From contig OZ336880.1 in assembly GCA_965287045.1 (NCBI GenBank), forward strand, positions 4,712,001 through 4,776,000: DNA of 64,000 nt, read 5' to 3'. The notes under the pieces are model-generated. The model saw nothing but the letters and a program-made list of their open reading frames with translations, was not told the origin of the DNA and made no database searches. Positions within the stretch are counted from its first letter, which is position 1. Each line of letters starts with the position of its first letter. This document shows, piece after piece, positions 3,381 through 56,840 of the stretch. Source of the stretch: Carcharhinus amblyrhynchos. Its lineage: Eukaryota. The translations under genes and the position numbers were made by a program.

Positions 3381-4328
3381 GTGGGGCGCACCGGGGGGGA
3401 TCCGGACTGGTGTGTGGGGGAGGGGCAGGTATGTGGCGAAGGGGCTCGGGGCTGCCATGTGGGGGCGGGGCTAGGGTGAATGGGAGGGGCTCGGGACTGG
3501 TGTGGGGGAGGGGCCCCGGGGCGGTTTTGGGGGGGGGGCCGGGCGCCGGGCTGGTGTGTGGGGAGAGGGGCTGGTAAGTGGCGAAGGGGCTCGGGGCTGC
3601 TGTGTGGGGGAGGGGTTAGGATGAATGGGAGGGGCTCGGGACTGGTGCGGAGGAGGGGCTGGTTGTGGGGAAGGATCTGGTGCGACGTGGGGAGGGGCCC
3701 GGGGCGGTGAGAGGGGGAGGGGCTCTGGTCTGGGGAGTGGCGGAGGGGCTCCGGGCTGGGGTGGGGGCGGGGCTCCGGGCTGGGGTGGGGGCGGGGCTCC
3801 GGGTTGGTGTGTGGGGGCGGGGACCCGGGCCGGAGCGGGGGAGGGGGAGGGGCTGGCTGGTGTGAGGAGAGAGTCCCTGGGCTGGTGGGTGTGGGGGCGG
3901 GGTTCTGGGCTAGTGTGTGGGGGAGGAGCTCCGGGCTGGGTGTGGGGGCGGGGTTTCCGGGCGGGGGTGCGGGGAGGAGCTCCGGGCTGGGTGTGGGGGG
4001 CGAGGCTCCGGGTTGGTGTGTGTGTCTGGGCGGGGCAGTGTGCTGGGGTGGGGGAGGAGCTCCGGTCTGGTGTCTGTGTGTGGGGGGGTGGTGGGTGGCG
4101 GGGCGGGGCACCGGGCTTGTGTGTGTGCGTGTGTGGGGGGCGGGGCTCCGGGTTGGTTTGTATGTGTGTGTGTGGGGGGCGGGGCTCCGGGTTGGTGTGT
4201 GTGTGGGGGGCGGGGCTCCGGGTTGGTTTGTGTGGGGGGGGCGGGGCTCCGGGTTGGTTTGTGGGGGGGCGGGGCTCCGGGCTGGTGCGGGGGGGCGGGG
4301 CACTGGGGTGGGGGCGGGGCTCCGGGCT

Positions 4329-4366
<38 letters not shown>

Positions 4367-4403: not shown

Positions 4404-4448
4404 ATGGCGTGTCTGTTGGAGGCCCCGATGCGGATGAGCGTGCTCTCG
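4404..4448 (+). CDS. ARMC8: ARMC8 exon 1 (MACLLEAPMRMSVLS)
   Basis: AAGATGG start context, resembles the human N-terminus MACLLETPIRMSVLS, donor GTGAGT at 4449. Confidence 0.93.
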
Positions 4449-19504: not shown

Positions 19505-19581
19505 GAAGTTACAGCCAGCAGTCGTCATTATGTTGACCGGCTCTTTGATCCTGACCCCCAGAAGGTGTTGCAAGGTGTTAT
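19505..19581 (+). CDS. ARMC8: ARMC8 exon 2 ([26 protein letters not shown])
   Basis: ttctctttag| acceptor, |GTAAGT donor, 77 nt, in frame with exon 1. Confidence 0.96.
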
Positions 19582-20485: not shown

Positions 20486-20557
20486 TGACATGAAGAATGC
20501 TGTAATTGGAAATAACAAACAGAAAGCGAACCTGATTGTCCTGGGAGCAGTACCAAG
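20486..20557 (+). CDS. ARMC8: ARMC8 exon 3 ([24 protein letters not shown])
   Basis: tgtgcag| acceptor, |GTATTG donor, 72 nt, phases consistent. Confidence 0.96.
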
Positions 20558-23756: not shown

Positions 23757-23899
23757 ATTACTGTACCTACTACAGCAAGAGACATCGACAGTGGAACTTA
23801 AAACTGAATGCGCAGTAGTATTAGGAAGTCTTGCAATGGGCACAGAAAATAATGTCAAATCTTTGTTAGATTGCCACATAATTCCAGCATTATTACAAG
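23757..23899 (+). CDS. ARMC8: ARMC8 exon 4 ([47 protein letters not shown])
   Basis: ttttacag| acceptor, |GTAATG donor, 143 nt. Confidence 0.97.
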
Positions 23900-27263: not shown

Positions 27264-27361
27264 GTCTCCTCCTTCCGGACCTGAAATTTATAGAGGCTTG
27301 TCTTCGATGTCTTCGCACCATATTGACGAGCCCTGTGACACCAGTGGAGGTACTCTATACA
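27264..27361 (+). CDS. ARMC8: ARMC8 exon 5 ([33 protein letters not shown])
   Basis: aatag| acceptor, |GTAAGT donor, 98 nt. Confidence 0.96.
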
Positions 27362-28067: not shown

Positions 28068-28160
28068 GATGTTACTGTGGTTCCACATCTCATGTCCTTG
28101 CTCAGTAGATCTCGATATACACAGGAGTACATCTGTCAGATTTTCTCCCATTGCTGCAAG
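28068..28160 (+). CDS. ARMC8: ARMC8 exon 6 ([31 protein letters not shown])
   Basis: tccctag| acceptor, |GTAAGA donor, 93 nt. Confidence 0.96.
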
Positions 28161-33494: not shown

Positions 33495-33575
33495 ACTCCG
33501 GAGCACCAGGCTGTGTTGTTCACCCATGGTGCAGTTCAGAACATTGCCCATCTACTGACTTCATCTTCATACAAA
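33495..33575 (+). CDS. ARMC8: ARMC8 exon 7 ([27 protein letters not shown])
   Basis: tttgttag| acceptor, |GTAAGT donor, 81 nt. Confidence 0.96.
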
Positions 33576-34530: not shown

Positions 34531-34606
34531 GTTCAGATGCAAGCATTAAAATGCTTTTCAGTCTTGGCTTATGAAAATCCACAAGTTTCTTTGACTCTTG
34601 TAAATG
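34531..34606 (+). CDS. ARMC8: ARMC8 exon 8 (VQMQALKCFSVLAYENPQVSLTLVN)
   Basis: tctcaatag| acceptor, |GTGAGT donor, 76 nt. Confidence 0.96.
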
Positions 34607-35214: not shown

Positions 35215-35305
35215 TGTTGGTGGATGGTGAGTTATTACCCCAAGTATTTGTGAAGATGATGCAGAGGGATAAACCTATTGAAATGCAGCTGACATCTGCA
35301 AAATG
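35215..35305 (+). CDS. ARMC8: ARMC8 exon 9 ([30 protein letters not shown])
   Basis: ctgttttag| acceptor, |GTACCT donor, 91 nt. Confidence 0.95.
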
Positions 35306-35569: not shown

Positions 35570-35630
35570 TTTGACTTACATGTGCAGGGCTGGTGCAATC
35601 CGGACAGATGATAACAGTATAGTTTTAAAG
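35570..35630 (+). CDS. ARMC8: ARMC8 exon 10 (CLTYMCRAGAIRTDDNSIVLK)
   Basis: attttacag| acceptor, |GTTGGT donor, 61 nt. Confidence 0.95.
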
Positions 35631-38809: not shown

Positions 38810-39150
38810 TTTCATGGGATGCGGGCATAAACTGGCAAGGCCAGCATTTGTTGCCTATCCCTAATTGTCTTTGAAACAGGATGGCTTGTTGGCCATTGCA
38901 GAGGACAATTAAGGGCCAATCACATTACTGAGGGACTGAAGTCACATTGGCAGAACCAGATGAGATGGCAGATTGCCTTCCTTGAAGGACATTAGTGAAT
39001 CAGGTTTTTTTTTAATTTGACAGTGAATGATAGTTTTGTGATCATCATTACTGAGGCTGGTTTTATATTCTAGATTAACTGAATTGAAATTCCACCAGCT
39101 GTCATCGTGGGATTACTAGTCCATGACATTGCCACTCCATCTCCCCTTGT
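38810..39150 (-). mobile_element. SINE with LINE-derived tail (family also at 52348-52632 + and 57345-57610 -)
   Basis: ttcatgggatg...ggccagcatttgttgcc...ggacattagtgaa...ttccaccagctg shared among the copies. Confidence 0.75.
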
Positions 39151-39811
39151 TAAACTGTTTTAGAGTGCAAAACCTCTTTTACAAGAGTGTAATAATTGTT
39201 AATACAATTCCAATCAATCTTTTTGACACAGAATTGAAACACTTTAAATTATTCAATTTCTTTTTTGCATCTCATTGAATGTTAAAGATTTTGAAAATTA
39301 TTTCAGTTGTTTGGGACTCCTTTCTCATTTCCTTCAATTCCTTTTTTTTAGTCTTTTGTGACCTTAGTTTATTTTTCTGTATCTGGTTTTGATTCTTAAT
39401 TCATCCTCCTTTATTGTACCTTTTTCTTCCTCAATCGTTAAGGTAGCAAGATGGACAGTTGGCCCCAGTGTTAACTGTAGTCCCGGATACACCTTGGCGA
39501 ATGCCACACCATTAAAAGCTGACATTTCCAGCAAGCTGTATTGCAAAAGTTTTTCTAACTGAAGGTTGCAGAAGGGTTTAGTTGATGGGGCGCAGCGTGA
39601 GATGTTGTGCTTCAGCATGATCTGGCCTATTCTGCGGTCAGGCTGTTTCCCTTGTCAAATTGTCCACAGAAGTCAACTAACATGTACTATGTGACATTTT
39701 TTATTGTGTCATTTTACTCCCCTGTAAAACATATCTATGTTCAGTTGGTCATGTTATACAACTTTGTGGGTCTAACTAATGGAAAGTAAAATACAGTTTG
39801 AAGGAGGCCTA

Positions 39812-39960
39812 TTTTTAGTGTGCTGCTTTGTCATCATGTAAATGAAGACCTGATGGACAGTGGATCACAACTGCAGTTCACAAGTCACTCGTGAACTGCA
39901 GCTGTGATCCACTGTCTATTTGGTCTTCATTCACATGATGACAAAGCAGCACACTAAAAA
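39812..39960. repeat. 149-bp near-perfect palindrome (possible MITE remnant)
   Basis: 74-bp arms centred on C39886, ungapped, 6 non-Watson-Crick positions. Confidence 0.92.
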
Positions 39961-40075
39961 ATCTAACCCTGAAAAGTCCTAAATAGGTGTTCAATTGGGC
40001 TTCCCAAGAATTTTCACTGATTTGTATGTATTGCAAATATCCTGGTTAACCTCAGCAAAACCTTTCTCTGTTTAG

Positions 40076-40276
40076 ACACTCCCATGCCTTGTTAGGATGT
40101 GCAGTAAAGAGAGGCTGCTGGAGGAACGGGTGGAAGGTGCTGAAACCTTGGCATATCTGATAGAACCTGATGTCGAGTTGCAGAGGATTGCCAGCATCAC
40201 AGATCATCTTATTGCGATGCTCGCTGACTACTTTAAGTATCCAAGTTCTGTCAGTGCAATCACAGATATCAAAAGA
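40076..40276 (+). CDS. ARMC8: ARMC8 exon 11 ([32 protein letters not shown]...SAITDIKR)
   Basis: ctctgtttag| acceptor, |GTAAGT donor, 201 nt. Confidence 0.97.
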
Positions 40277-41101
40277 GTAAGTTTCTTAACTTGACTCGGG
40301 GATTTTCACAGTAACTTTAATAAACTTTTGTAAATTTATTAACGTTTTCAGTAATGTTCAGTATAATGAAGTAGATAAATAGTTGCAGTATTAATCTTGA
40401 TGAGATCCATAATAAAGCCAGCCGTGTTCATGATTTTAATCTAAACAATTGCACAGTAGTAAATTTAGTGTCCCCTAGCATTTCATAGTTCTATTGCTTT
40501 TGTGTTACTCTTACTAACAAAGATCAGCCACAGAGCAGTGACCTGCAATTTAATTGTTCCCCTGCTGCCTTCAAATTAGCATCACATCAGTGGGATATAG
40601 ACATTGGGTTTTTTCCACTATCTCCAGGAGATGGAGCCCTCACTTCAAAAAAAAATCTACCCCTTAGTTATTATTGATAACCTTCAATGAATCTTCAGCA
40701 AAAACAGCTGTTTGAATTACTTGTGCCTTGCAGAGATAGAACATAATATTTTAGTGTTACACTCCAAAGCTGGCGTTTATCTACTGCAATTAATGCACTA
40801 TTGTTACGTGCAATGTCAGCGAAAGATCTGATTTTGCCAGTAGTGTTTAGTCTTATTGTAGCTTGATTTCGAAGTTTAAATTGGAAATCTTTTATTTATG
40901 ATGGTCCTCTTAAGGCAGTTATTAAAAATGGATAATTGCTCAAGAATTGTTTGATATTTTAAAAATAATTTTAATGCAGGGATGCAATAATATTGTTTGA
41001 ATATTAATTCAGTTTTGTGTCCTGCTATCTGTTTTATTGATTGATTTATTGCAACTGCTACAAAAGTACTTCAATTTTTTGTCTTTCCTAATATTCTTCA
41101 G

Positions 41102-41197
41102 CTTGACCACGACCTCAAACATGCTCATGAACTTCGCCAAGCTGCATTCAAGTTGTATGCCTCCCTTGGAGCAAATGACGAAGACATCCGGAAGAAG
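41102..41197 (+). CDS. ARMC8: ARMC8 exon 12 ([32 protein letters not shown])
   Basis: ttcttcag| acceptor, AAG|GTGAGT donor, 96 nt. Confidence 0.97.
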
Positions 41198-41263
41198 GTG
41201 AGTCTGGGAGAGGGGCGTCCCCCGGTCCTGGCAACCAACAGGCAGGGAGTGACGTCAACCTGA
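41198..41263 (+). CDS. ARMC8: ARMC8-beta alternative C-terminus (exon 12 read-through, [21 protein letters not shown])
   Basis: Open, GC-rich in-frame continuation to TGA at 41261-41263; closely resembles the human short-isoform tail as I recall it. Confidence 0.85.
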
Positions 41264-41657
41264 GAACAAGGTGAAGAGAATTAACAGTGACTTTACGAAA
41301 GAGCATAATCAGATCTGAAGAATGAATGGGATTGACACTCATTTGTCTAGAGAAATGAGTTGTGACGTGTTCATGTTGGAATGACAAGTACTGGTGTTTC
41401 CTGTGTTGAACCTGCACCGGATCCTTAAATTACATTCTTTGCATGAGTTCGTAACAGTAGTAACAAAATAAGCACTGTGAAGTGTAGTGTATAGTACTGA
41501 CTCACATAATGCAGTAGTACTGTAATGCCAGTTATATAAATGCTTGCCTACCTATCTGCTGCAAACCGGAAGTACTCAGCTTCTGTTTCTGTATCACTTT
41601 TAATTTGTGGCCTGCTGATGTGTTCATTTGTGTTGCTGATGTGCAAGTTTAATTGTA

Positions 41658-41663
41658 AATAAA
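41658..41663 (+). terminator. Putative intronic polyadenylation signal for the short ARMC8 isoform
   Basis: AATAAA about 395 nt after the beta stop, preceded by TGTA and followed by GT/T-rich sequence (gcttgttttctg). Confidence 0.65.
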
Positions 41664-42877
41664 GCTTTGTGCAATGACATTGCTGGTAGCTTGTTTTCTG
41701 AATCTACAGTAAAGCAAAACACTGTTTCCAGATAACTTGAATAATGGCATTTAAAATGTAGTTGAATTTTTAATCTGTACACAGTGAGTGATAAGCCCAG
41801 AATGGCATCTTACCGTATCTCAAATAAGGGAGAACCGTGTTGTGATGCACATGTACCCATCAAGACTGAGAGCCACTAATGCTGGAAAATATGCATGCTT
41901 CCATATTGTCTGGAAATGTGATTGAAATGCCAACTTAAGAGTGTCCTTTTCCTGCAACAATGTGGTGTAATCAGTCTCATTTATTTCCTGTATTCTTTGT
42001 GAGCAAGATTGTCAAATTTAACAAAGTAATGCTGTGGACTTTGAAAACAGTCTGCTCACGTTAATTTCCCCCTCCAGCAGTTGTCATCTCTGATTTAGAG
42101 TGAGGTCCTAGTATCTCACTGATTTGTTTAAAATCATTTCAGTTTTTTTTTAAATTTCAGGTTCAAAATACAGGAAATGGCATTTTGACCTTTTTTGTTC
42201 GCAAATTGCAACTTTGCAATCATCAGTTTCTAACAAAAATGAGTTGCCTACAGGAATAATAAATTAGGATGAGCAAATCGTAGATATATCAGAATCGGAT
42301 CTTGGAGGTGAACAGACCTAATGCTAAACATGTAGACCCCCAATCTGTTGTTCTGTGAGCCTCCATTGTGCTTTTTCTGTGCTGGTTATGTTTGGTACAG
42401 AGAGAGTAATATTTAAGTATTGGTCAGGGCACCTGAAATGCCTTATTTACATAAAATGACTTTCATTGTGAGCAGTTACTATAAGTGTGTTTTTCAGCAC
42501 CTTTGGGCAGAATTTGAGGATGCTTAAATTAATTGAGAGGTGGGTGGGAGAAAGTGAAGAACATCCTTTTAAACAATTTTGGGATTAGAAAGCACCTACT
42601 GCACTAGAGGCTTTTGTGCAGTTATAGTGAAATCATTGTTATACCATGGTTCTTTTTTGTAATATTGGTGTAAAAGTATTTTAAGTTAACTTAATTAACT
42701 CAAATTATAGACTCAATGCTCAGGAAAAGACTCTTTGCCCCACTTGCGCTGGCTATACGTCTCCAGGTCTTGCTGTTCCTACATCCACTTTCAAATTTTA
42801 CTATTGTTATATTGTCACCTCATTTGTCCTGCTAAAGTGAATTATTTCACACTTCTGTGTTAATTTTTAAAAATACT

Positions 42878-44650
42878 TGTTCATGGAATGTGAGCATTGC
42901 TAGCTAGGCCAGCATTTGTTGCCCATTGTTAATTGCCCTTAAGAAGGTGATGGTGAGCCACTTTCTTGAACGTTGCAATCCTTATGGTGTGAATGCACTT
43001 AGTGGGGAGCTCAAAGTTTTTGACCCAGTTACAGTGAAGAAATATGCTGATATGGTTCTGTCAAGGTGATGTATGGATTGGAGGAAATCTTGTAAGTAGT
43101 GGTGATTGTATGCATTTGCTTCACTTGTGTTATGTGGTGGAAGTTGCGAGTTTGAAAGGTGCTGTCAGAGGAGCTTTGGTGAGTCATTGCAGTGTATATC
43201 TTGTCTATGGCACACACTCCTGCAACTGTGTGCCAATATTGCTGGGAGTGAATGTTTTAAGGTGGTGGCTGGGTCAAGCGGGTTGCTTTGTCCTGGGTAG
43301 TGTCAAGTTCTTTGAGTGTTGCTGGAGCTGCGCTTCTCTATTCCATCACACTCTTGACTTATGTCTTATAGATGGTGAACAGTGGGAAGTTGAGGTGAGT
43401 TGCATTTGCCCAGTTCACCAGCCTGTGTTCTCCAGACAATTGCCCTCACCTGCTTTTATGCCATTTGCAAGCTTTGAAATTTTGTCCCATACAAATCCCA
43501 ATTTCAGGGTATTAATATATATCTAAAGGAGCAGAGACCCCAACATCAACCCCTGGGAGAGACAACCGCATACTTCCCTTTACTCTGATAAAACAACTGT
43601 TGACCACTATTCTTGGTTTTCTATCCTTTAGCAATTTTGAATCATCACTGTGTCTTCAATCACACAAACGTTTGCTAACAAGTCTATTACTTGTCTATTG
43701 CAAGACCCTCGTCAAAAAACTCAATTGTGTTAGTCAAACGCATTCTGCAATTAACACCTGTGCTGGCTATCATTGGTTAACCCATATTTTTCCAAATGGC
43801 AAATAATTTTGTCCTGGATTAATGTTTTGTAAAGTTGTATCATCACTGATGCTCAGCTGACTGGCTTGGTAATGGTCGGATTTCTCTCTCCCTTGTTCCA
43901 TCCTTGTTGAAACATTTCAAGAACTACAATCCTCTGACACCCCTTCCGTATCCATTAGAGGATTGGGAGATTGTGGCCAGAATCACTACCCACATTTCCC
44001 TCAGCAACCTAGGATGCATCTCCTCGGGACCAGGTGATTTTTGAATTTTGAAAAGTAATCTTTTTATCCTTATCTATGCAATTTCTCTACTACCTTTTGC
44101 TGGGCATTGACAGCATCTGCTCTTTAGTGGAGAAACTGCAACCTGATTATTATGTCAGCCATGCTTCTGCCTCTACCAGAAGATCTCCATTTTGGTCCTC
44201 ACATATGGCTATCCTCTAAGTATCTGCTTATGCAAGACATTTGGCTTTCTTTTTGTTATCTACTAATCTATTCTCAAGTGCACATTTTGCCCTCTTATTT
44301 CCTTTTATAGTTCTTTCCCCCCCCCACATACAATTTGTGTTCAACTTGCCTATCTACTGAATTATAAATGTGCCATTTATCTTAACCCTCTATCCAGTTT
44401 CATTTTTAGCTCTATATCTAGAGTTATCTGGGGGCTTCATCTTTGAAGCATCTTTTTTTTCTCCCTAGTGGGGATGTGTGTAGTCTGTACCTGCACCTGA
44501 ACTAAGCCCTCTTTGAAGGCCTCCTGTCGTAATTTAGTTGCTGGTCTTTGATTCGCTGCACCAAGGTTAAATACCTTTTTAGCTGATTGAAATGACTTGT
44601 CCTTCTGTTTGGCATTTTGATTACCCCCCAAAAATTAAATGTAATACTGT
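42878..44650 (-). mobile_element. LINE 3' end (to about 43405) followed by a decayed CR1-like fragment
   Basis: First part matches 21420-21900; second part has an antisense SPGPxxMHPRLLRE-like motif (about 44000-44040). Confidence 0.65.
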
Positions 44651-47600
44651 TTCCTCACATCTGATTATCAAAGAAACTTTGACCGCCTGTATTAAATCTC
44701 TTTCTCCGTAACCATTTCTGCTCGGAGGAAAACAATCCCACCTTCTGTCCTCTTTCCACATAAATGAATTCTCTCGTTCCTGGTGTTATTCTAATAAATA
44801 TCAGACCCTACTCCAAGTCATTTGACATCCTTCCAAAAGCGTGGTGCCCATCTTTGACTTTCCCTAAATATTCATCAATTATTGGTTAAGTTCTGGGAAA
44901 TAATTTTCACTGGCCCAATTTTTACAATGTCATTTTTAGCATGTTATTACAGGAAAATCTTGTTGCCATGATGGATTTTATATCAGCTGACAAAAAAAGT
45001 TGGTGAATATTCTACATTTTTGTGATGTGAATTTAATCAACTTCTTAATATGTAAGTACGTTTCAGAATTATTGCACAGAAATAAAGTTCAAATGCTGCA
45101 CTTCATAGAGCTTGAGGCAGTTTTAAAGAAATATATATGAATGAGAGATTTACAAATGAAGACCGTATTCCTATATGATTTGAGAATATTGAAATGGGAC
45201 TTAAATATACCCACCTCTGCAGCATGTAAATATATTTTAGAACACTTTTTCACCTTTTCCTTGTGCCTGTATTGTTAATTAACAACAATGTCATTGACCT
45301 CCATAGTTCACACTAATGTCCCTTTTGCTACAGTGGGACAGTGAATAAAATTATCTTTTGCAAATTGTATTAATGTAACAAGACAAATTATATTTATATA
45401 TGGGCACTGACTTACATCTGCATAAATGGGAACCAAACCAAATCAATTCAAGGTTCACTTATTATCCTACGCCGTCTTAATCCATTCATTATTCATTTAT
45501 AAATGATACGCAGGTGCTCTGCTGCTTATGCTATTGACTGGGAAGTTGAGTTGTCTAATGGTTACTGCTACTTTAATTCCACCTTCCTCACAAGACAATT
45601 TCATTAAAATTTAAGATATACCCATTCTACCTTCACGTACTTGCATATTGCTGTCCAATTAGAAAACACTAGCGTTACTGATCATCAATAGCTTTGGCTT
45701 ACGGTCTTGCTGCCCATGCATTGAGCTTTATTTGTAAGGCCACTGAAAGAATATTGATTTTAAAAAAGGTACGCCTGAAATTTCGCAACAAAAAGACAGT
45801 AGGAATTCATATTGCATTCTGCATATTATGAAGGTCTGTCACTTAACAATATACAAAACATTTACAATCCATAACAAAAGGTCTTGGGCATAATCCTTGA
45901 AAAGTACATGCGTATAACACATGCAAAACCTTGAAAGCAAGAGTTTTCACACTCTTGTGCGTACTTGTATGCTTGAGAATCTCTGCCGTCTCCTACCCAT
46001 GGCCTGTGCAGTTACACAACATTAAAATGAGGTCTGTCCTTTGGCTCGGATATATTTATGCATGAATCATCAACGTGGGACTTCGCACATGTCTGTTAAT
46101 TCATGCATAACTATCGATTGCATTACTTGACGTACAGAATCAATCCACGGCAGGTTGACGTTATAATTCTGGGATATTAAAAGAATTAACTGGCACACAG
46201 TGCCTAGAATTTTTGGCTATTGAAATAAGGCTTGTTGTTAAGGTCAACATAAATTCATTCAGTTCAAAATGATTTGTTTCCACATCTGATTAATTTTAAC
46301 TAAGAACTGCCACAGGATCCTTTATCTTGAGCTTGTTCAGAGTTGCTGCCAACCTATCGGTTTGTTTTTGATTTATCTTTGCAGTTAGAAAATGAATAGA
46401 TGTCGTTTTCCAGGGCATTGGTCAGATACTTTCTGCATGAAGTCACCTTTTACATCAGGAGTTCTTTTGAATTCTTCCCACCCTTGCTGAAAATGCTTAG
46501 TGAGTGTTTTCATTGAGTCCTAGGCCAAATATCAGACGTGACGTAATGCTGGATTTTAATCAATTGCAGTATGAGTAAATGGGAATATTTTTAGCTTGGT
46601 AGTGAAATCCTGCAGTGGTCTGACATTTTTCCCATTCCAAAGTTGCTTTCTGGTTTTGAAATAATGCTTTGGTGTTTATCTTTTTGCTCAATGTGTTCTT
46701 TTGTACTATCATAGTCATTACTTTTATTCCTTCAAATAGATAGTTAACCTTCATTTTTGCAGTGCTGTAAATTCAAAGGAATCCCTTGTTTGGATCTCTT
46801 TTTGTATTTGCAAGCTAAGCTGACAGAGCCTTTTAACAGCTTCAGGTTGGACTGTTATTTAGTATATTCAAAATAATAGCAATCAAAAAACTTTGGAGCT
46901 CCTTTGTTTTGCTGGGAAAAGGTCTCATATTTGGAAGAATTGTCCTCTTTTGGTAATTTTATGATTTCTTGAAGATTTGTAACCCATCTCATTTTTTAGT
47001 AGTGATATTCAGAATAATTGTTCTTCATCAATGTACTTTATTTGATGCTTCAGCAAAAAGCAATTTCAACAACAATTTTAAAATGCTTTACCTGTTTGAG
47101 ATTTCAATAGCACAGTGAGTTATTAGACTTGTGTGTGTAGAAATTATTTCATGGTGCAATAGTCTTTGAGGTTGTGGTTAAGGTGCATTGTTGGAGCACA
47201 GTAGTTGAAAGCCATGCGCTGTACCTCCCTATGTTGTACATGGCTGAGTACATCATGCTAAATACTGTTAGAAGTAAAACAAAAGTGTTCTATTCTCCAG
47301 CCAGCACCAACATCCTTCACCTTTGATACAAAAAGATTCCCCACAAAAATGGAATACTCACAATTTCAAAAATAGATTGAGAATTCAGAAGAACATGTTT
47401 AATTTTGATGTTGATATCCTTGTACAGAAAACTTAACTCGGGAGTTAAAGAATCAGTTGAAAGTAGGTTGTTGATGCTCAGTTAGTAACTACCATGCCAA
47501 CTGTTTCCAGCTTAGTTTACAAAAACACATTCTCCTGTGGCTTCCTATGTTCAGTACAAGTCAAAGCAACAGAAAAATACCAATGCCCTTACAAAAATTG

Positions 47601-50600
47601 ATGCCTTAACTATGAAAGTTAGCGGTATTGCCACAAACATTAGGATTTTAACCATTGTTTAATTAGTGATATGATAAAGTGGGAGATGCTGAACGGTTGA
47701 ACTGATGACTAATATTGCTGCTGGTTACTGCTGTCATTTTAAAGGTTTAAAATGCAAATCTATTTTTCCCTCATGGAATTCTGTTGTAAATTTATATTCT
47801 TTAAGTTTAAAAAATAAGTACCTTTAGCACATTGTAGATTGGGTCCATTACAACAGATGTTCTTATGTTCTGCTATTGACAATGAATGAGTGAGTATTTG
47901 TTCACTTTTTTATGACAGCTGTAGATTTAGTTATTTTGTTTTATTTCTAATAACCTGATAGTTTTATGATGAAGGTGTGAATCATAAATTCTCTACTGTA
48001 GCAACATATTTCAAGATTTTCTTTTATAGTAAGTACTTCTGTTTGCAAAAGACAAATGACCTAGGGTTATCCTCAGCAATCCAATTATTAGATAACTTTC
48101 AAGCTCCTTCTATGTATTTTGAACTGTCAGCTTAGAATAAACTGACAAATTATTATAAAATGGCATTTCATCCCATTTAGAGGCTGCCATCATTACATTG
48201 ATAAACTGCAAATTATAGAAAAATTATCTCCATCATATCAACTAACAGACTTGATTTTGTAATGAGACTTCTAAGATCAATCCTGTGGTAAGATAATATC
48301 ATAAGAGCAAAGTCAATACAGTTCATGACTTGTTGAGCATTTAGGTTTTTAACAAATTATAAACTGATTATAGAGTACCATGTCATCAGGGGTATTGAAA
48401 AATTGATTATGGTAATTCATAACTTAAGATGTTCATTATTTCCAGTAATGTTAAAGCAGTCATGAAACCATAAATTTTATCATGTGTTTTATATATATAT
48501 AAAATGCAGCTTGGAATGTCTTTCTCTCTGTGCAGAATTAACATTGCTTGAAAATGCATTTGTCAAGTTGTGGGAAAGCTATGACTTTCTTGTTGGTATG
48601 GCAGTCCAAATTTTGCAGCCTGCCATCTCTCATAACCACCAAAATTGAGACAATTGTCCTCATCTGTCAGCTTTAGCTAAATCCTACAAATGCTTCTTAA
48701 AAGTTATGTAGGGGTTTTTGCATTTAACTATGTATCTGTTTTCCTTTTAGTATCTTTAGTTTCATTTACAAACCCTGAGGAAAATTAGTTGCTGTAAGCT
48801 GAGCTGTATGAAGGTGAAGTTAACAGCTCCATTGATAATTCATCTCCTTCATACCATTGCCAGTAATAGCATCTGGCCAAAAGCCTTGCTTTCATCTGTA
48901 GATAGTGTTTTAAAAAATATATGAAATGTTTCAATGAGATTCTTTTTAATCATATGCTCATTTTACTCAAGCGCTGCTAATGGTGTTAAAAATCAAACTT
49001 TAGGAAAACTATATAAAAACTTAAAAAATCATTGAATACTGTAATATGTATATGTTCAGCCATCATAATGTTACAATGAACTAGCCATTCCAATTATCCT
49101 TCACCAGCTCCTTAAATAACTATAATAGAATGGCTAATTCATAATGGCCCATTCTAAAGTAGTATCACCATGTTTAATTGCTGATTGATTAGTGGGAATA
49201 TGGTAGTAATGGCTTGTTAATTTGATGGTTACAACTTTGTCAGATTTGTTACTTGGTAGCAGTTTCAGCTATGGCTCAGAAGACTCCGTGTTCCAGTCTT
49301 ATTCTGGTATTTGAGTCCATAATCTAAGATGACACCCAAATCAAGTCTAGTGCTGGATGGTGGTGACTTCTTGGGTGAGACGTTAGACCAAGATGTTCTG
49401 TTGATGTTAAAGGTTGGCTTTGTCAGAGATCCTGGGTACCAGCAACCTTGGGCACTCTTAGTCAACTTGAGTACGAACAGCGCTAGATACCATGCATAAT
49501 CCAAGACAAGGCCTCTAATGGCTTCCAAACTATGAAACTTCAATCTGAGCATTTTAACTTGCACAGCTTTCATTATTCAAAAAGTCCATGCCTACCTCGG
49601 GTGCCGTTTATTATACTTTGCTATGTGCAGAATGGCTTTTATGTTTGCCAATGTAGCACTGTTTTTCAAGGGAATTCAGCGGTAAATACACTTCAAGGGA
49701 ATTCAGTCTGGGATATGATCAAGTGTAATATAAAAGCAAGTATTTTTATTGGGAGGTTAAGGATTTTGTTAAAAGTATACTGTGGTATTAACTCTCAGGA
49801 TGCCTCCATCCTGGTTCTGCAAATGGCAGTTATTTGGATTGAAGGAACTCTATTCCCATTTTATTTTTATTAAATGCAGTTTCTTGCAAGAATGGCATCC
49901 TTATAAGACCATTTCATTTTTCATCAATGCTGAAGTTATAGAACAAATCCTGATTTAGGAGCAAATCAGAGTGAAATGTCTTGAAGGAAACTAAGCACTG
50001 GAGTTTTGTCTGGCCTAGCTTTTGATATATTATAACTGTTGCTGAAAGTCTGTATAGTATAAATGCAGCCAAAGGAAAGCAAGATTTTCAGAGAATCCAA
50101 TGTTCTTACAGCTCTCTTGCGATATACCAGCTATTGCGCAGAAGAGGCAAATCTTACACCGGCATGCCAGCCATAAGCTGTGGGGACTGTATGTTCTGTC
50201 CTACTGCAAAATGTTTTGAGAGAATTTTAAATAACATGCACAAGTTGCACTTTCATTTAAAGAAATGTAATTCTGTCCATGTCTATAGTAAATTAAGATG
50301 CATCAACCTAAGTTGCTTATATTTAGATCTTTTTGCTTCAGGGCACAGGAGTATTCAGATTCAAGTTACCACTGTCTTTCTCTTTTGCTATCCCCTACAA
50401 TCCAACCCTCCATTTCAGTTCTTAACCTAGATGTTTCTTCATAGAGCGAGTCTGATTTTTAGGGATTGCCTTGAAGAAGCAGAGATTTCTTGCCAGTTTG
50501 CTTGGCTAGAAAATTGAGAAGAGGGTTTCAACAGCATTCTTGTGCTGTTATCATCAGTCTTCAGCATGGGTTCAGCACTATTAGCCTCTGTTATCATTGT

Positions 50601-53600
50601 TTTCATTTCTTTGAACTCCATGTTATGATTACAAGTTGACTGTTGAAGGGTGCAATTTAATGTTGAGATTAAAAATAGAAATTTGTACCTGCTGGAGTTC
50701 TGAAATTAAAACCAAGAAGAAACTATAAATACACAGCAGGTCTGAGGCATTTGAAAGGAAGTGTATTTGGTGAGCAGATTTTCCTTAAGTCTGCTCTCGA
50801 AGAACTTTGGTGAAAGTAAAGAGTGCTATGAGCAATGTGCATCATTCCTTGTCTCAGTATTATTGTTGAATGCCTTCAGGAAAGTATCTATAAATCTTCA
50901 GATGCAGGACAAACCGGTTCTTGAACTTGAATTTCACTATAAGAACTTAACAGGAGTTTGATGTATGAATGAGGATTTGTACTTGGTTGGGTTTGTCTGA
51001 CTAATTTTAATACGTTGGAATAATTTTAATACATATTTAATTAAAGTTGTGGTTTGGCAATTTTCTTCCTTTTACTGTTATCCGTTTATGTAATATCTTT
51101 AACAAAAGAGCAATGTACCTGAAATGAATTTCTGTATGAGTTTCCTTTATAGATAATAAAGTGAAATTGAATTTGAATTGAAAAGATGGTTTAACTGTTC
51201 AAATATAGATTAGAACCATTGGCATATCTTTCCCCTTTATGGTTGCTGACAAGACCTGTTATGTATTTACCATATTTCTGTTTATGATATTCAGACAAAG
51301 TTCACAGCAACCCAAAGGTTTTATACTTGGGATTATCTAATACGAATAGCTGTTCATTCCAACTACAGTTCAGGCCTATGTGAGGCAATAGTAGCTGAGG
51401 AAGGAACTGTGTCAAAATAACAGCAGCATTGATGCGTGGTGCTGGTTCTAAGACTCCCTAATGTCACAGCAAGTTAACTAATTGTATAGTTGTCAATTTT
51501 AAGTAACCATTAGCTAAGAAACCCTTCAGCTCGAAAAGTTGACTAAGAATTAAAAATACAAATTGAAATGGGATTTGTTTCATCTTCTAATGTAAATCTG
51601 AATTTCTGAGTTAATGCAGATGTATATTTCCAGAGACAACCTTAGGGATATGAGTGTTCAAAACTGTACACGTGTACATGGATGTTTTATTTAAAGAAAA
51701 TCTGTTTCCAGTATACTATACTAGTTGAGTTGAGACTGATTATTTCACCATGATTTTCTATAAGTTTGTTTATTATTTTAGAGAGATTTTCAGGACCAAC
51801 TAATTTCCTGAAGAAAGGTATAATTGCTCCTTCCCTAGCAGAATTGTAATATATTGAAAAGTGGAATTTGCATTATTATTGCTGTACAAAATTTAATTTA
51901 ATATCTCAGTTTATGACTTTGGGTTTGACTACAGTGATAAAAAATTGACATTAGGGAGATTTGTGAGAACAGATGCCATATTGCTTTGCTAAAATGCTGT
52001 TTTCCTTCAGGACAAAAAAGGTTGTGTTAATCAAATAATAGAAGTGCAGTAATGTATTTTCAGTGATTATGCCACAGTTATTTCACCTCTTCTATATGTA
52101 CCAATTAATAATATTTTCATAAAATGTCCACTATAAAGATCAGGTTTAAATTTCAGTCTGTTTCATCTAAGAACAGGCTGTGTAGTTTTTCCACGTACTG
52201 CTCGAGATTCAAAATTATACACTGTGCTTGACCTAAGATTAAAACTAAGGAATGAATGCATCAGAATGCAATGTAGTACATGGTGTGCAAATTTAAGAAG
52301 AAAAAAGTCAGGATGAAAGAGGACTTTGCTTCCTTTGGGAATCCTTAAGAGGGCACAGTAGCCTTGTGGAATGTGGTTACTAGCCTTGTGGCTAGTGACC
52401 CGAATGTTATGAGGTTAAATGACATAATGATAGATTGAATTCACTGGCTTGCTGGGCTAGCATCAGGAAAAAAAATGACAGTGAAAGCTGCCAAGTTGTT
52501 GTAAAAGCCCAGTGGCTCACTCATGTCCTTCAAGGGTAGGGGCTTCTTACCTCTACCTGATCCATTCTGAAAATGACTCCAGTCCCGCACTGTGTAGAGT
52601 CATAAGGCCCTCAAGGGGCAATAAATACTGTCATGTTACTGTTGATTGCATTCCAATAACTAATAAAAAAAAAGTCGACATCTGATGCATGTTTTGATTT
52701 GGGGTCGGGGGGATGGCGAGGGACAGGATGGAGCAAAAGAGATGTTTTAGAAAAATTGCTTTTGAAAGCTGATTTCCAAAAGAACTGTGTTGTGAGGCTG
52801 GATACAAGTGTCTCAGACTCTCGGGTGATGGCCTACCTTGGAAATGGCATCCCTGATTGGGTGGCTGCACGTTGCCAGGTAAAATCTATAAAATATAATT
52901 TTCTCTTGAGCAGTGCATTTAAGAAGAATTGCACAAGGAAAGGGCTGACATATAATGGTTGATTTTAGCAACTGAGATGAGATTGAAGTTTGCCTTTCCA
53001 ACTGCTACCAATATTTAGAAATCGCCATTAATGAAGTAAAATGCTTTCTAAGAGCATTCTCAAACAAAACTTGACTCACAGATATAAGACAGATGAGGTA
53101 GGTTAAAATAATTGTTATTTTGTTTACACCCTCTGAATAAAGATGGTGGTGCAAGGAAATCAGAATAACCAAATCTAAGAATTATCTATTTCTAACTTAG
53201 TGATCAAATTTTGACATCATTTTAAACATTATGAAAACTTAATTCTTTACTGTGTTTGGAAGAGTTTAGATTCAGATAATGTCAATCAAGATGATACATT
53301 TGATCTCCATTTCTTAGATTGGCTAAGTTACCAAATCCAGGAGATGAACAATTGCCATGGGAACTTCCTACAAGCACAGTTCATTTCAGGAACAATTGCT
53401 GCATGGATGGTCTTTTGTTTGCTTGCAAACCTTATTAGTCTGTTAAGATTCCTCTTGTGGAGGATAAAACTTAGATTGTTGGTACCAGATAATAGAAAAT
53501 ATAGACCAATTGACCCCCAATTTGCGATTAATGGGTTAGTACTGATGGCTTATCAATTGTTTCAAACCCATATATGAGTGTCTACCATTAAACTATTCTA

Positions 53601-53797
53601 TCTTGATATTGTAGTAAATTTGTTAAGATTGCAAAGTTTGTGAAAACAATTTGAATAATTTTCTCTGCTTCTTACTGAACCCCAGCTAAAATAATACCTT
53701 ATAAATTGCAAAAGCTAAATTTAATTATGCCTCAAGTGAATTTGTGACATTACAAACCCTGTTAGTTACTTATGCTGCTGTTAACTTTTTGTTATAG

Positions 53798-53880
53798 ATT
53801 ATTGAGACTGAAAATATGATGGATCGAATTGTGACTGGCTTAGCTGAGTCTAGTATCAAGGTGCGGTTAGCTGCTGTCAG
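53798..53880 (+). CDS. ARMC8: ARMC8 exon 13 ([28 protein letters not shown])
   Basis: tttgttatag| acceptor, |GTATGG donor, 83 nt. Confidence 0.96.
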
Positions 53881-56758
53881 GTATGGATGGACTCCTGAAC
53901 TTTCCTGTCTGAAATACAATTTGATAGTTCTAAAACCAATATAGTGACTAGTATTGTGTTGACTCGGCAGACACTGAATCTTTAATCAGTTTAGCAAATA
54001 CTCCTGTAACATTTGCATGGGTAATAAAATAGAGAATGAAAAAGGGCCCAGATTTGCTACATAATTAGTTGGCTATTGTATTATTAACCATTAACTTGAA
54101 GCTTAAGCACTCCCATTAAATAACTTGGAAGTATTCTTTGAGGCACTTAACCACCCCTTTGATGGTAATCTATTGCACTCTAACATAAATACACTATCAA
54201 TTTAAATTATTAGTTGCGTGGCAGATAAAAAAATTCTAATTCTGAGAAAGAATGACTGAATCAAATAATTAATTCAACTAAATGTTAGTTTGATAGTTTT
54301 GTGATTACATTTTCAAATTCTCATGTGCCTGGGGGGAAGCTTTTAGCTTTCATGATTTTTTTCTAGTGATTAAATCCAACAACCTTGTTGATCTGTGAAT
54401 ATTTGATTTAGTAAATTATTCTAAGATGCATCTTAATGAGTGTAACTAGTTAGGCAAATTTCAGTTTAATATTGTTTTTGTGTAAGGTGCAGCTATGTAC
54501 ATTATATAGGTGGAGTGTACCTTGGTTGTTTTGAGTTGTAGTCTTGCATTAAGTGGATGAATGTTAGTTTGACTGGAGTAACCCTGAGTTAAGACATTGA
54601 AGGCTGATCCCAGGCATAGAGGACTTGAGACAAAATAAAAATTCAGATGTTGAATCTTTCGAAACAATTTGGGGAAGACCTCATAAGGTTCATGCTAACA
54701 TTCTTTAATTGTGTAGAAATAGTAAGTCCTCATGTTAAATTTTGATAGTGGGACAAAGAAGAAAGGTTGAAAATTAGTCTGACAGGTTTTATACTGATGT
54801 CAGGAAGTTGTTCTTGATCAATTGGATCAAGTTTATTCAAGAAACTACTGGACACTGCAAAAGTGGTTTGTAGGTAGGATAGACGGAACAGCACCTTCAT
54901 TTTTCTTGTTATCTCCTGATCTGTCATTACTAATACACAGTCAGACAGCTTGAATTTTGACACTGATCATTTGGGCAGTTTAACTTTTAATGGCCAATCC
55001 TATTTTTGAATGTAGGAACAAATGAGGCACAGATGCAGGCAATTCAGCCCATTATTTCTGCCATTTCTATTAGCCTCCGTAACTCTCTTCAATCCCTGTC
55101 CTTCCTCCATTTCCCTTCATATGGACTTCCCAAGTGTTTCTTTTTTTAAGCACGTCAGTTGACTTTGTCTTTATGACCATCTGAGGAGAAATCATTCCTG
55201 AATGATATTCCTGAACTGGAATTCTAGGAATAGATTCTCTTGTTCTAGATTCCCCATCAATTGTCGTCATCATTTGAATTACCTTAGTGGGATTATCATT
55301 TAAACTCCTCAGCTATTGGACATATTTCCAAAATCTCTCACCATAACAACCTCCTAGGTAATTTCCTAGTAAATAATTGTTAGATTTTCTTTAAGTAAAC
55401 AAATCATTCCTAAGACCAAACTGTCCGATTTGATACATTACTGGCATGGTGCATAATTGAAGTAATACTTTTATATTCTCTATCTCTTGTGATGGAGCCT
55501 GTGTCATATTATGCTTTTGATTGCTATTTGCACTTGAACCATAACTTTCAGTGGTTTATATACTTGGACCCTTAAATGTTGTCTGCCCCATCCAGTATTT
55601 TCCATTCAAGCAATACTATCTGTTATTCTTAATCCAAAATGTACCATTCACTCTTTCTTGAATTACATCGGCACATTCTCAATCCATTTATGTCTGTACA
55701 TAATTTTCTACTGTCTTCTTTATTGTATTTACGATCTTAGGATCATCTGTAATGAAGGATTTATTTCCATCTGTTCCCAAATCCAGATAATATGTGAGAT
55801 GAAAAGCTGAGAGCCAACATAAATTCTTGGGGTGGGGTGTAATAGCAATTCTTATTGCTATCCTTTTCATCCTAATTGTCTACCTTCTACTTTCCTACTT
55901 GTTTCTCATCTAATTCCATGTACTTTAATTTTGGCTCGCAATGTGTAGAATTTCAAGTCTATGAATAGACAACCTAATCCTCTTCCCTGCATCACCTCAG
56001 TGTCTGTGACAAGGGGTCCAATAGATTGATTGACATGATCCACCTTCTGCAAAAGCATATTTTGATGAGAGCTTTTACTCTATCTATTCTTAAAATCTTT
56101 CTACTGCAAACATTAATCTTACTGATTCATCGGTATTTGATTTCTCACCTTCCTTTTGGAATAAAGACGTTTGATGTCTTCCAGTCCTACTGTACTTTCT
56201 ATACGCTACCTCTAGTTTTCAAAAAAAACCTGAAATCTATTATCTCTTTATTGATCCTAAGTACTTTCTCTAAATCCAGTGACCTTTAATGAATGCATTC
56301 CCAGTTTATTTGCCTCCCTTTTTAATATACATACATATCAAGGTCCCGCAATTTGTGATTTCATAATTTTATCCCATTATAATTTTTCTGTTTTGAATTA
56401 ATTTCTCTGTGCCAATCTTTAGTTTTCCTAAACACACTTGTATTATATCTTCCTTCTGTAATGTGAAAATTGAAAATAGCATTATGGTTCTTCTGCTAAG
56501 TACTCATCTTCTGTTATTGTTTTGAGTATATCGTCAGGTTTATTTGACACAGATCATAGACCAATATTACCTTGATTTATTATTTCAGATGTTGATGGGG
56601 ATTGGGTTTATTTAATCTGCTCAATCACTGGTCTTGTATGTTTGATCACTACTTATTCTTGCATTGTTAAGGGATAATCAAGCACACCATCCACATTTGT
56701 TTAATTCTATATGTTTTTTTTTGAGAGATATGTATCTTTGTCTGATTTCCATTCATAG

Positions 56759-56840
56759 ATGTTTGCATAGTCTGTCCAGATCAGTACAGCAACTCCGAAC
56801 AAGTTTTCAGGATCATACGGTGTGGAAACCACTAATGAAG
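56759..56840 (+). CDS. ARMC8: ARMC8 exon 14 ([27 protein letters not shown]); later exons not seen in the window
   Basis: attcatag| acceptor, |GTAGGT donor, 82 nt. Confidence 0.96.

Follow-up and report, generated by a model that had tools for sequence, protein, structure and literature searches.

The start of intron 12 of ARMC8 in this cartilaginous fish encodes the 21-residue tail of the short beta isoform, and we think it probable that this stretch acts as a composite terminal exon in which a nucleotide element has been the main target of selection. That ARMC8-beta is a real and ancestral isoform we hold with high confidence. In the mechanism we propose, splicing at the exon-12 donor would lead to full-length alpha, and cleavage near position 41679, 482 nt past the donor, would lead to a 399-aa beta that, judging by its homologues, would join the CTLH ligase but lack the half that binds GID4. 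Positions are those of the window, the whole 64-kb stretch of DNA that was analysed (G000:C11:4712001-4776000), and the features are collected in Table 1. Our direct observations are the reading frame, the identity of the tail, the poly(A) signal, the intact alpha exons and a partial copy of the region on another contig, C17.

Table 1. Features of the ARMC8 locus in the window
Feature	Position	Strand	Basis or remark
ARMC8 exons 1-11, full span	4404-40276	+	tblastn, AG/GT ends, open frame
ARMC8 exons 1-11, common to alpha and beta: first six	4404-4448, 19505-19581, 20486-20557, 23757-23899, 27264-27361, 28068-28160	+	tblastn, AG/GT, open frame
ARMC8 exons 1-11: remaining five	33495-33575, 34531-34606, 35215-35305, 35570-35630, 40076-40276	+	tblastn, AG/GT, open frame
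Exon 12, with codon 378 at its end; internal in alpha, opening part of the putative composite terminal exon in beta	41102-41197	+	
Start of intron 12: donor, 21-codon beta tail, TGA	41198-41263	+	
Palindromic CRE-type octamer, sole + strand instance in the window	41250-41257	+	
Non-coding continuation of the conserved element	41264-41388	+	post-stop read-through of vertebrate record P0004, with frame shifts
Putative beta 3´ UTR	41264-41679	+	C17 copy
TGTA immediately 5´ of AATAAA; first AATAAA/ATTAAA in intron 12	41654-41663	+	
CA, putative cleavage site, 16 nt past the hexamer and 482 nt past exon 12	41678-41679	+	3´ end of C17 copy
Second AATAAA, candidate distal site	42258-42263	+	
Alpha exon 13	53798-53880	+	tblastn, AG/GT
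Alpha exon 14	56759-56840	+	tblastn, AG/GT

ARMC8 lies on the + strand as a single locus in its own genome, on a contig of 97.6 Mb. Fourteen coding exons were placed in the window by tblastn and a check of splice ends, all with AG/GT ends, and exon 11 is single-copy in the genome. Exons 1-12 total 1134 nt, or 378 codons, with no internal stops; over these exons identity to all eight vertebrate ARMC8 records compared is 87-98%, as expected of an orthologue, and the predicted protein matches the Callorhinchus model at 360 of 369 residues, which marks the organism as a cartilaginous fish. Another eight alpha exons follow further along the same contig, past the end of the window, so an intact alpha form stands beside beta. 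The first coding exon of a DBR1-like metallophosphoesterase gene (116-337, - strand) faces ARMC8 in head-to-head orientation across about 4 kb. The DBR1-ARMC8 synteny described in the available text of PMC6680376 backs the name. Upstream of the ARMC8 start codon and adjoining it, within the shared promoter region, is about 1 kb of G-rich tandem repeats (3409-4364; units of 24-31 nt, with a GT run at the end). Intron 10 holds a near-perfect, MITE-like inverted repeat (~39810-39965, arms of ~70 nt) with weak matches to many miRNA models, all below the model thresholds.

The original prediction had the exon-12 donor, AAG/GTGAGT, read through in frame to a protein of 378+21 = 399 aa, and the exon map confirms it: exon 12, with its AG acceptor, is followed by 21 in-frame codons (41198-41260) and TGA (41261-41263), and the 399-aa product has no internal stops. 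Its first 378 residues are those of alpha and the 21-residue tail is encoded by the intron, which is the organization of the beta isoform. The AATAAA noted there was likewise confirmed, at 41658-41663. The first 66 nt of intron 12 are 65% GC, as against 26-52% for the corresponding 66 nt of the 13 other introns, and the first 100 nt contain three G-runs, as against 0-2 elsewhere. The octamer near the end of the tail is of CRE type and a candidate element.

The mammalian tail given in that prediction proved correct and is identical to the window tail at 18 of 21 positions in PDB 8A1I chain A and in mammalian records, among them P0133, labelled human/chimp. Human and mouse beta share with the fish the junction after residue 378 (Q8IUR7-6 as cited in the available part of PMC8567238; PDB 8A1I), the length of 399 aa and the head-to-head arrangement with DBR1. 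The deposited sequence of 8A1I chain A runs to 401 aa, with two additional residues separating exon 12 from the tail; the paper gives 399. The publications found describe beta in mammals only, whereas the present case is a cartilaginous fish in which the RNA end is deduced from a genomic copy.

We surveyed 303 stored proteins, of which 105 show a read-through-type continuation at the exon-12 donor. Thirty of these are at least 14/21 identical to the window tail. The Amblyraja skate reaches 20/21, mammals 18/21 (Myotis 17/21, one cut-off mammalian record 14/17), the frogs Ranitomeya and Ascaphus 17/21 and 16/21, and tuatara 14/21. The skate, frog, tuatara and mammalian tails share the same frame, length and stop, and 10 of the 21 columns are invariant over the eight distinct tails. 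Conservation from shark to human had been predicted; this stands for the peptide in those groups, but the overall pattern is patchy, with loss in teleosts and decay in turtle and crow that the prediction had not foreseen. In automatic gene models, the Chrysemys turtle tail lacks one codon and runs through the usual stop, crow tails match at only 4/21 and all 17 named teleost read-throughs at only 1-4/21; the 53 records of the teleost-type GSN variant all stay at or below 4/21, and in P0167 and P0169 the tail is cut to three residues. Gar, bowfin, sturgeon, coelacanth and chimaera enter the set only as spliced alpha models, which are uninformative on intron 12. The tail match is not due to chance: read-through-type continuations found at other ARMC8 donors reach at most 4/21, in a control that is unsystematic because the proteins were collected with exon 12 plus the tail as query.

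In Salarias (P0019) and seven teleost-type records, the read-through meets exon 13 after only ~80-100 nt, an intron 12 too short for a 480-nt terminal exon. It is possible that teleosts make a short form by intron retention, as many gene models end in intron 12 with unrelated tails. Farther afield, a metagenome scan returned 10 loci, all distant, non-vertebrate-like relatives: eight have no intron at this place and two have a donor at the same position with an unrelated read-through, as do several other distant records. The position of intron 12 is thus older than the tail. Presence of the tail in skate, this fish, two frogs, tuatara and mammals means that it predates the split of cartilaginous and bony fish; by parsimony over gene models, not aligned DNA, it was probably in the jawed-vertebrate ancestor or earlier. 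The age proposed for the alpha/beta switch, the last common ancestor of jawed vertebrates, is therefore supported as a minimum, and the switch would have been lost or have decayed in teleosts and some sauropsids.

AATAAA occurs 0.9 times per kb in the window, and the hexamer at 41658 is therefore weak evidence taken alone. Stronger evidence came from a search of the fish's own genome with 41264-41800, in which two candidates gave two matches: the gene itself and a copy at G000:C17:27011530-27011941 (L013:1501-1912), 371/416 identical (89%) to 41265-41679. The C17 copy ends at the CA 16 nt after AATAAA and continues with seven A in eight nt, where the gene sequence differs. Positions 10-30 nt past an AATAAA make up 1.8% of the window, and 0.2% of its 8-mers have at least seven A, a joint chance of 0.018 x 0.002 = 4e-5 for such an end, in a rough post hoc calculation. 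The 20 kb flanking the copy contain no ARMC8 exon and no intron sequence beyond 41679. The copy spans no splice junction, being too short to reach one. As in a retrocopy, the 3´ end lies at the poly(A) site, an untemplated A tail follows, although of only 8 nt, and the 5´ part is truncated. No target-site duplication was found at the copy, the best 7-mer being at chance level; the duplication may have decayed, given the divergence of 11%. A contig from a DNA run of a close relative (X18), which differs from the window at 10/642 and 21/647 positions in the neighbouring intron, carries six of the eight listed substitutions and all three listed deletions of the C17 copy, so the copy is real and shared and no assembly artefact. 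Most likely it is a 5´-truncated retrocopy of the end of a beta mRNA polyadenylated at 41679. Read in this way, it points to cleavage near 41679 and gives indirect support to the predicted transcript end near 41680; on the simplest reading, an ancestor made beta mRNA in its germ line or in the early embryo. The 5´ end of the copy (L013:1501, window 41265) lies two bases past the beta stop, such that the copy covers almost exactly the 3´ UTR, which may reflect chance truncation or the copying of a free 3´ UTR fragment.

Sequencing runs were also considered. At least half of the words of 41102-41760 are present in 22 of the 24 listed runs; the share is 0.56-0.88 in 16 small runs and 0.91-0.96 in large ones, and the expected share is ~0.10 for exon 12 alone and ~0.87 for RNA ending at 41679. 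We regard these shares as suggestive and have set them aside, since none of the runs is recorded as RNA and the small ones are only guessed to be so. Over 41400-43000, three runs show cover only on the repeat at 42880-42971, in incomplete records that make the gap uninformative. That repeat is a fragment of a very high-copy family (summed depth >30000 in the DNA run).

Both beta and its use of an intronic poly(A) site are already documented for human and mouse (PMC6680376, PMC12687426, PMC12395873, PMC11364545, PMC8189437, bioRxiv 10.64898/2026.01.14.698769, as far as the available text of these sources goes). Human ARMC8-beta enters the CTLH complex but fails to bind GID4 (PMC8567238, in the sections available), which for human bears out the claim that beta does not recruit this receptor. 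CTLH rings could carry 0-4 GID4, according to the accessible part of PMC9180843. Excerpts of a human atlas of intronic poly(A) sites list two regulated ARMC8 peaks with a retained coding length of 1203 nt (PMC5928244), and these peaks probably represent beta, since the length fits exons 1-12 plus the tail. In the same atlas (seven of seven supplement rows), use of the two peaks is 0.19+0.11 = 0.30 combined in naive B cells, 0.30+0.29 in blood B cells, 0.45+0.25 = 0.70 in blood T cells and 0.64+0.15 = 0.79 in plasma cells, and use of the proximal peak (hg19 chr3:137964478-137964523) is 0.29 in one myeloma group, below the 0.64 of plasma cells (supplement 4). One row excerpted from PMC10960005 gives another ARMC8 intronic site, of skipped-exon type and at a different position. 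The literature searched, with subscription papers and some supplements outside its scope, contained no report of beta outside mammals, of its age or of losses in lineages. The sole pointer beyond mammals is an ARMC8 of 40 kDa predicted in Xenopus (PMC4368662, available text), and an evolutionary study that included elephant shark treats beta only as a human isoform in the passages at hand (PMC6680376). Skate, frog and tuatara models in databases already carry the tail, without comment.

What, then, has kept the tail? The original prediction offered a peptide motif or an RNA element controlling the choice between splicing and poly(A). The second of these gained support, from similarity past the stop, tolerated loss of the stop and disorder of the tail, while the first found no positive evidence. 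The vertebrate record P0004 has a tail of tetrapod type, 18/21 identical to that of the window, and has lost the stop; its 47 post-stop residues match the window DNA to 41388 with 37.2 bits, while the best score elsewhere in the 64 kb is 20.9 bits and none of 426 blocks scores as high. The similarity thus extends ~125 nt past the stop and reaches ~190 nt into the intron, and two thirds of its length lies outside the coding sequence. Among the seven records tested by back-translation, P0004 (whole and post-stop) and the turtle P0124 (tail only) were positive, and P0009, P0010, P0012, P0166 and P0181 were negative. Twelve of the 13 substitutions among the eight distinct tails need one base change (including L-P, S-P, T-M and R-H), a count that is weak evidence because single changes dominate at low divergence anyway; several substitutions are non-conservative. 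In the crystal of mouse ARMC8-beta only 5-9 tail residues are ordered (PMC9932110, as excerpted). Folding energy of the element against shuffles gave z ~0 in seven of seven windows, which suggests linear motifs rather than RNA structure. A search against Rfam gave no match in the element and 10 weak matches across 39000-54500. We therefore favour constraint acting mainly on a nucleotide-level element for splice versus poly(A) choice, and the peptide would be largely a by-product of it; this call, drawn from one record (P0004) and a few gene models rather than a vertebrate DNA alignment, is unproven.

A peptide under selection is the rival that fares best, although we think it unlikely. The isoform would again be real and ancient, with selection mainly on the 21 residues, which might cap the cut armadillo solenoid, serve as a short motif for binding or signal the stability of beta. 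The constancy of frame, length and stop from skate to mammals and the 10 invariant columns fit such a role, as do the few ordered residues of the crystal and the findings that beta self-associates and that it stabilises the ring (PMC8567238, PMC9932110, in part). A peptide does not account for similarity reaching ~125 nt beyond the stop, nor for loss of the stop in the turtle and P0004 and the three-residue tails of P0167 and P0169, and the tail is mostly disordered in the crystal. Moreover, it belongs to no Pfam family, and among 1.84 billion representatives three of four matches were ARMC8, the sole non-ARMC8 relative being one marginal repetitive match.

We consider it improbable that the stretch is a conserved DNA element with a CRE-type site, be it an enhancer or an internal promoter, that serves ARMC8, DBR1 or a neighbour, with beta and its tail riding along. 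Such an element could explain the GC-rich island with its retained CpGs and unique octamer, as well as conservation past the stop, and turnover of conserved regulatory elements is known in teleosts, which fits the loss there. However, the donor marks the precise start of the conserved stretch, residue differences at the octamer mean that skate, Myotis, Ascaphus and P0004 cannot have it, and the C17 copy indicates that RNA ended in intron 12. Absence of function, with the match due to the slow evolution of cartilaginous fish or to mammalian contamination of the assembly, is very improbable and largely refuted, since other donors show no comparable match, tail positions 12-14 have skate-type rather than mammalian residues, and the stretch lies in an intact gene on a long contig with an old copy elsewhere in the genome.

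The composite terminal exon with a selected nucleotide element thus remains our preferred reading, and the size of intron 12 (12.6 kb), the TGTA and AATAAA, and a putative CA cleavage site at +16 (10-30 nt expected) agree with it. The donor counts against it: typical composite terminal exons have weak donors, and AAG/GTGAGT is consensus-like, as judged by inspection and not by a strength score. U1 normally suppresses nearby poly(A) sites. Taken with a consensus-like donor, this suggests that strong use of the site depends on a regulator, for which the conserved sequence adjoining the donor is the obvious candidate. In our model, the ~190 nt after the donor would be a protein-binding element, a candidate that may damp the donor or free the poly(A) site only 480 nt away; its G-runs would, we assume, be candidate sites for hnRNP H/F. 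Such an element would allow tuning of the alpha/beta ratio and hence of how many GID4 sites each ligase has.

Conserved composite-exon poly(A) sites are already known, in FLT1 and CSTF3. In the available account of sFlt1 (PMC2926593), an internal exon becomes a composite terminal exon through intronic poly(A), as in ARMC8, and the product has a short new tail but no effector half and is a competitor of the long form, with conserved cis-elements, in likeness to ARMC8-beta. sFlt1 is a secreted receptor decoy reported from chicken to human, whereas ARMC8-beta belongs to a ligase scaffold and reaches cartilaginous fish. The intron-3 site of CSTF3 (CstF-77) is, in the text available (PMC3708835), conserved among vertebrates and resembles ARMC8 in its large intron, the competition of splicing with cleavage, and conserved sequence round the donor, UGUA and hexamer. 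It has a very weak donor and no apparent protein, unlike ARMC8 with its consensus-like donor and stable protein. The same source describes weak donors as typical of composite terminal exons and U1 suppression of the poly(A) site as shown for CSTF3.

What is new here is the age of a known isoform and a testable element for it, within a familiar class of mechanism. The analysis delimits a 190-nt element for mutagenesis and names lineages that appear to lack it. The role of ARMC8-beta is listed as open in reviews (PMC12687426, PMC9180843, passages available). GID4/CTLH is used for targeted protein degradation, and the alpha/beta ratio would limit the ligase able to engage GID4. Tentatively, we picture intron 12 as an RNA switch of ~190 nt, as old as jawed vertebrates, that overrides a strong donor and sets the number of GID4 docking sites per CTLH ring, with differential use in lymphocytes, where it would account for most ARMC8 transcripts of human T and plasma cells, and with teleosts and some sauropsids as natural knockouts. 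An off-switch for GID4 is likely to be at least as old as jawed vertebrates. Cartilaginous and bony fish separated ~450 million years ago, and the keeping of the tail and of intronic poly(A) use since then speaks for beta as a regulatory product under selection, as opposed to processing noise in mammals.
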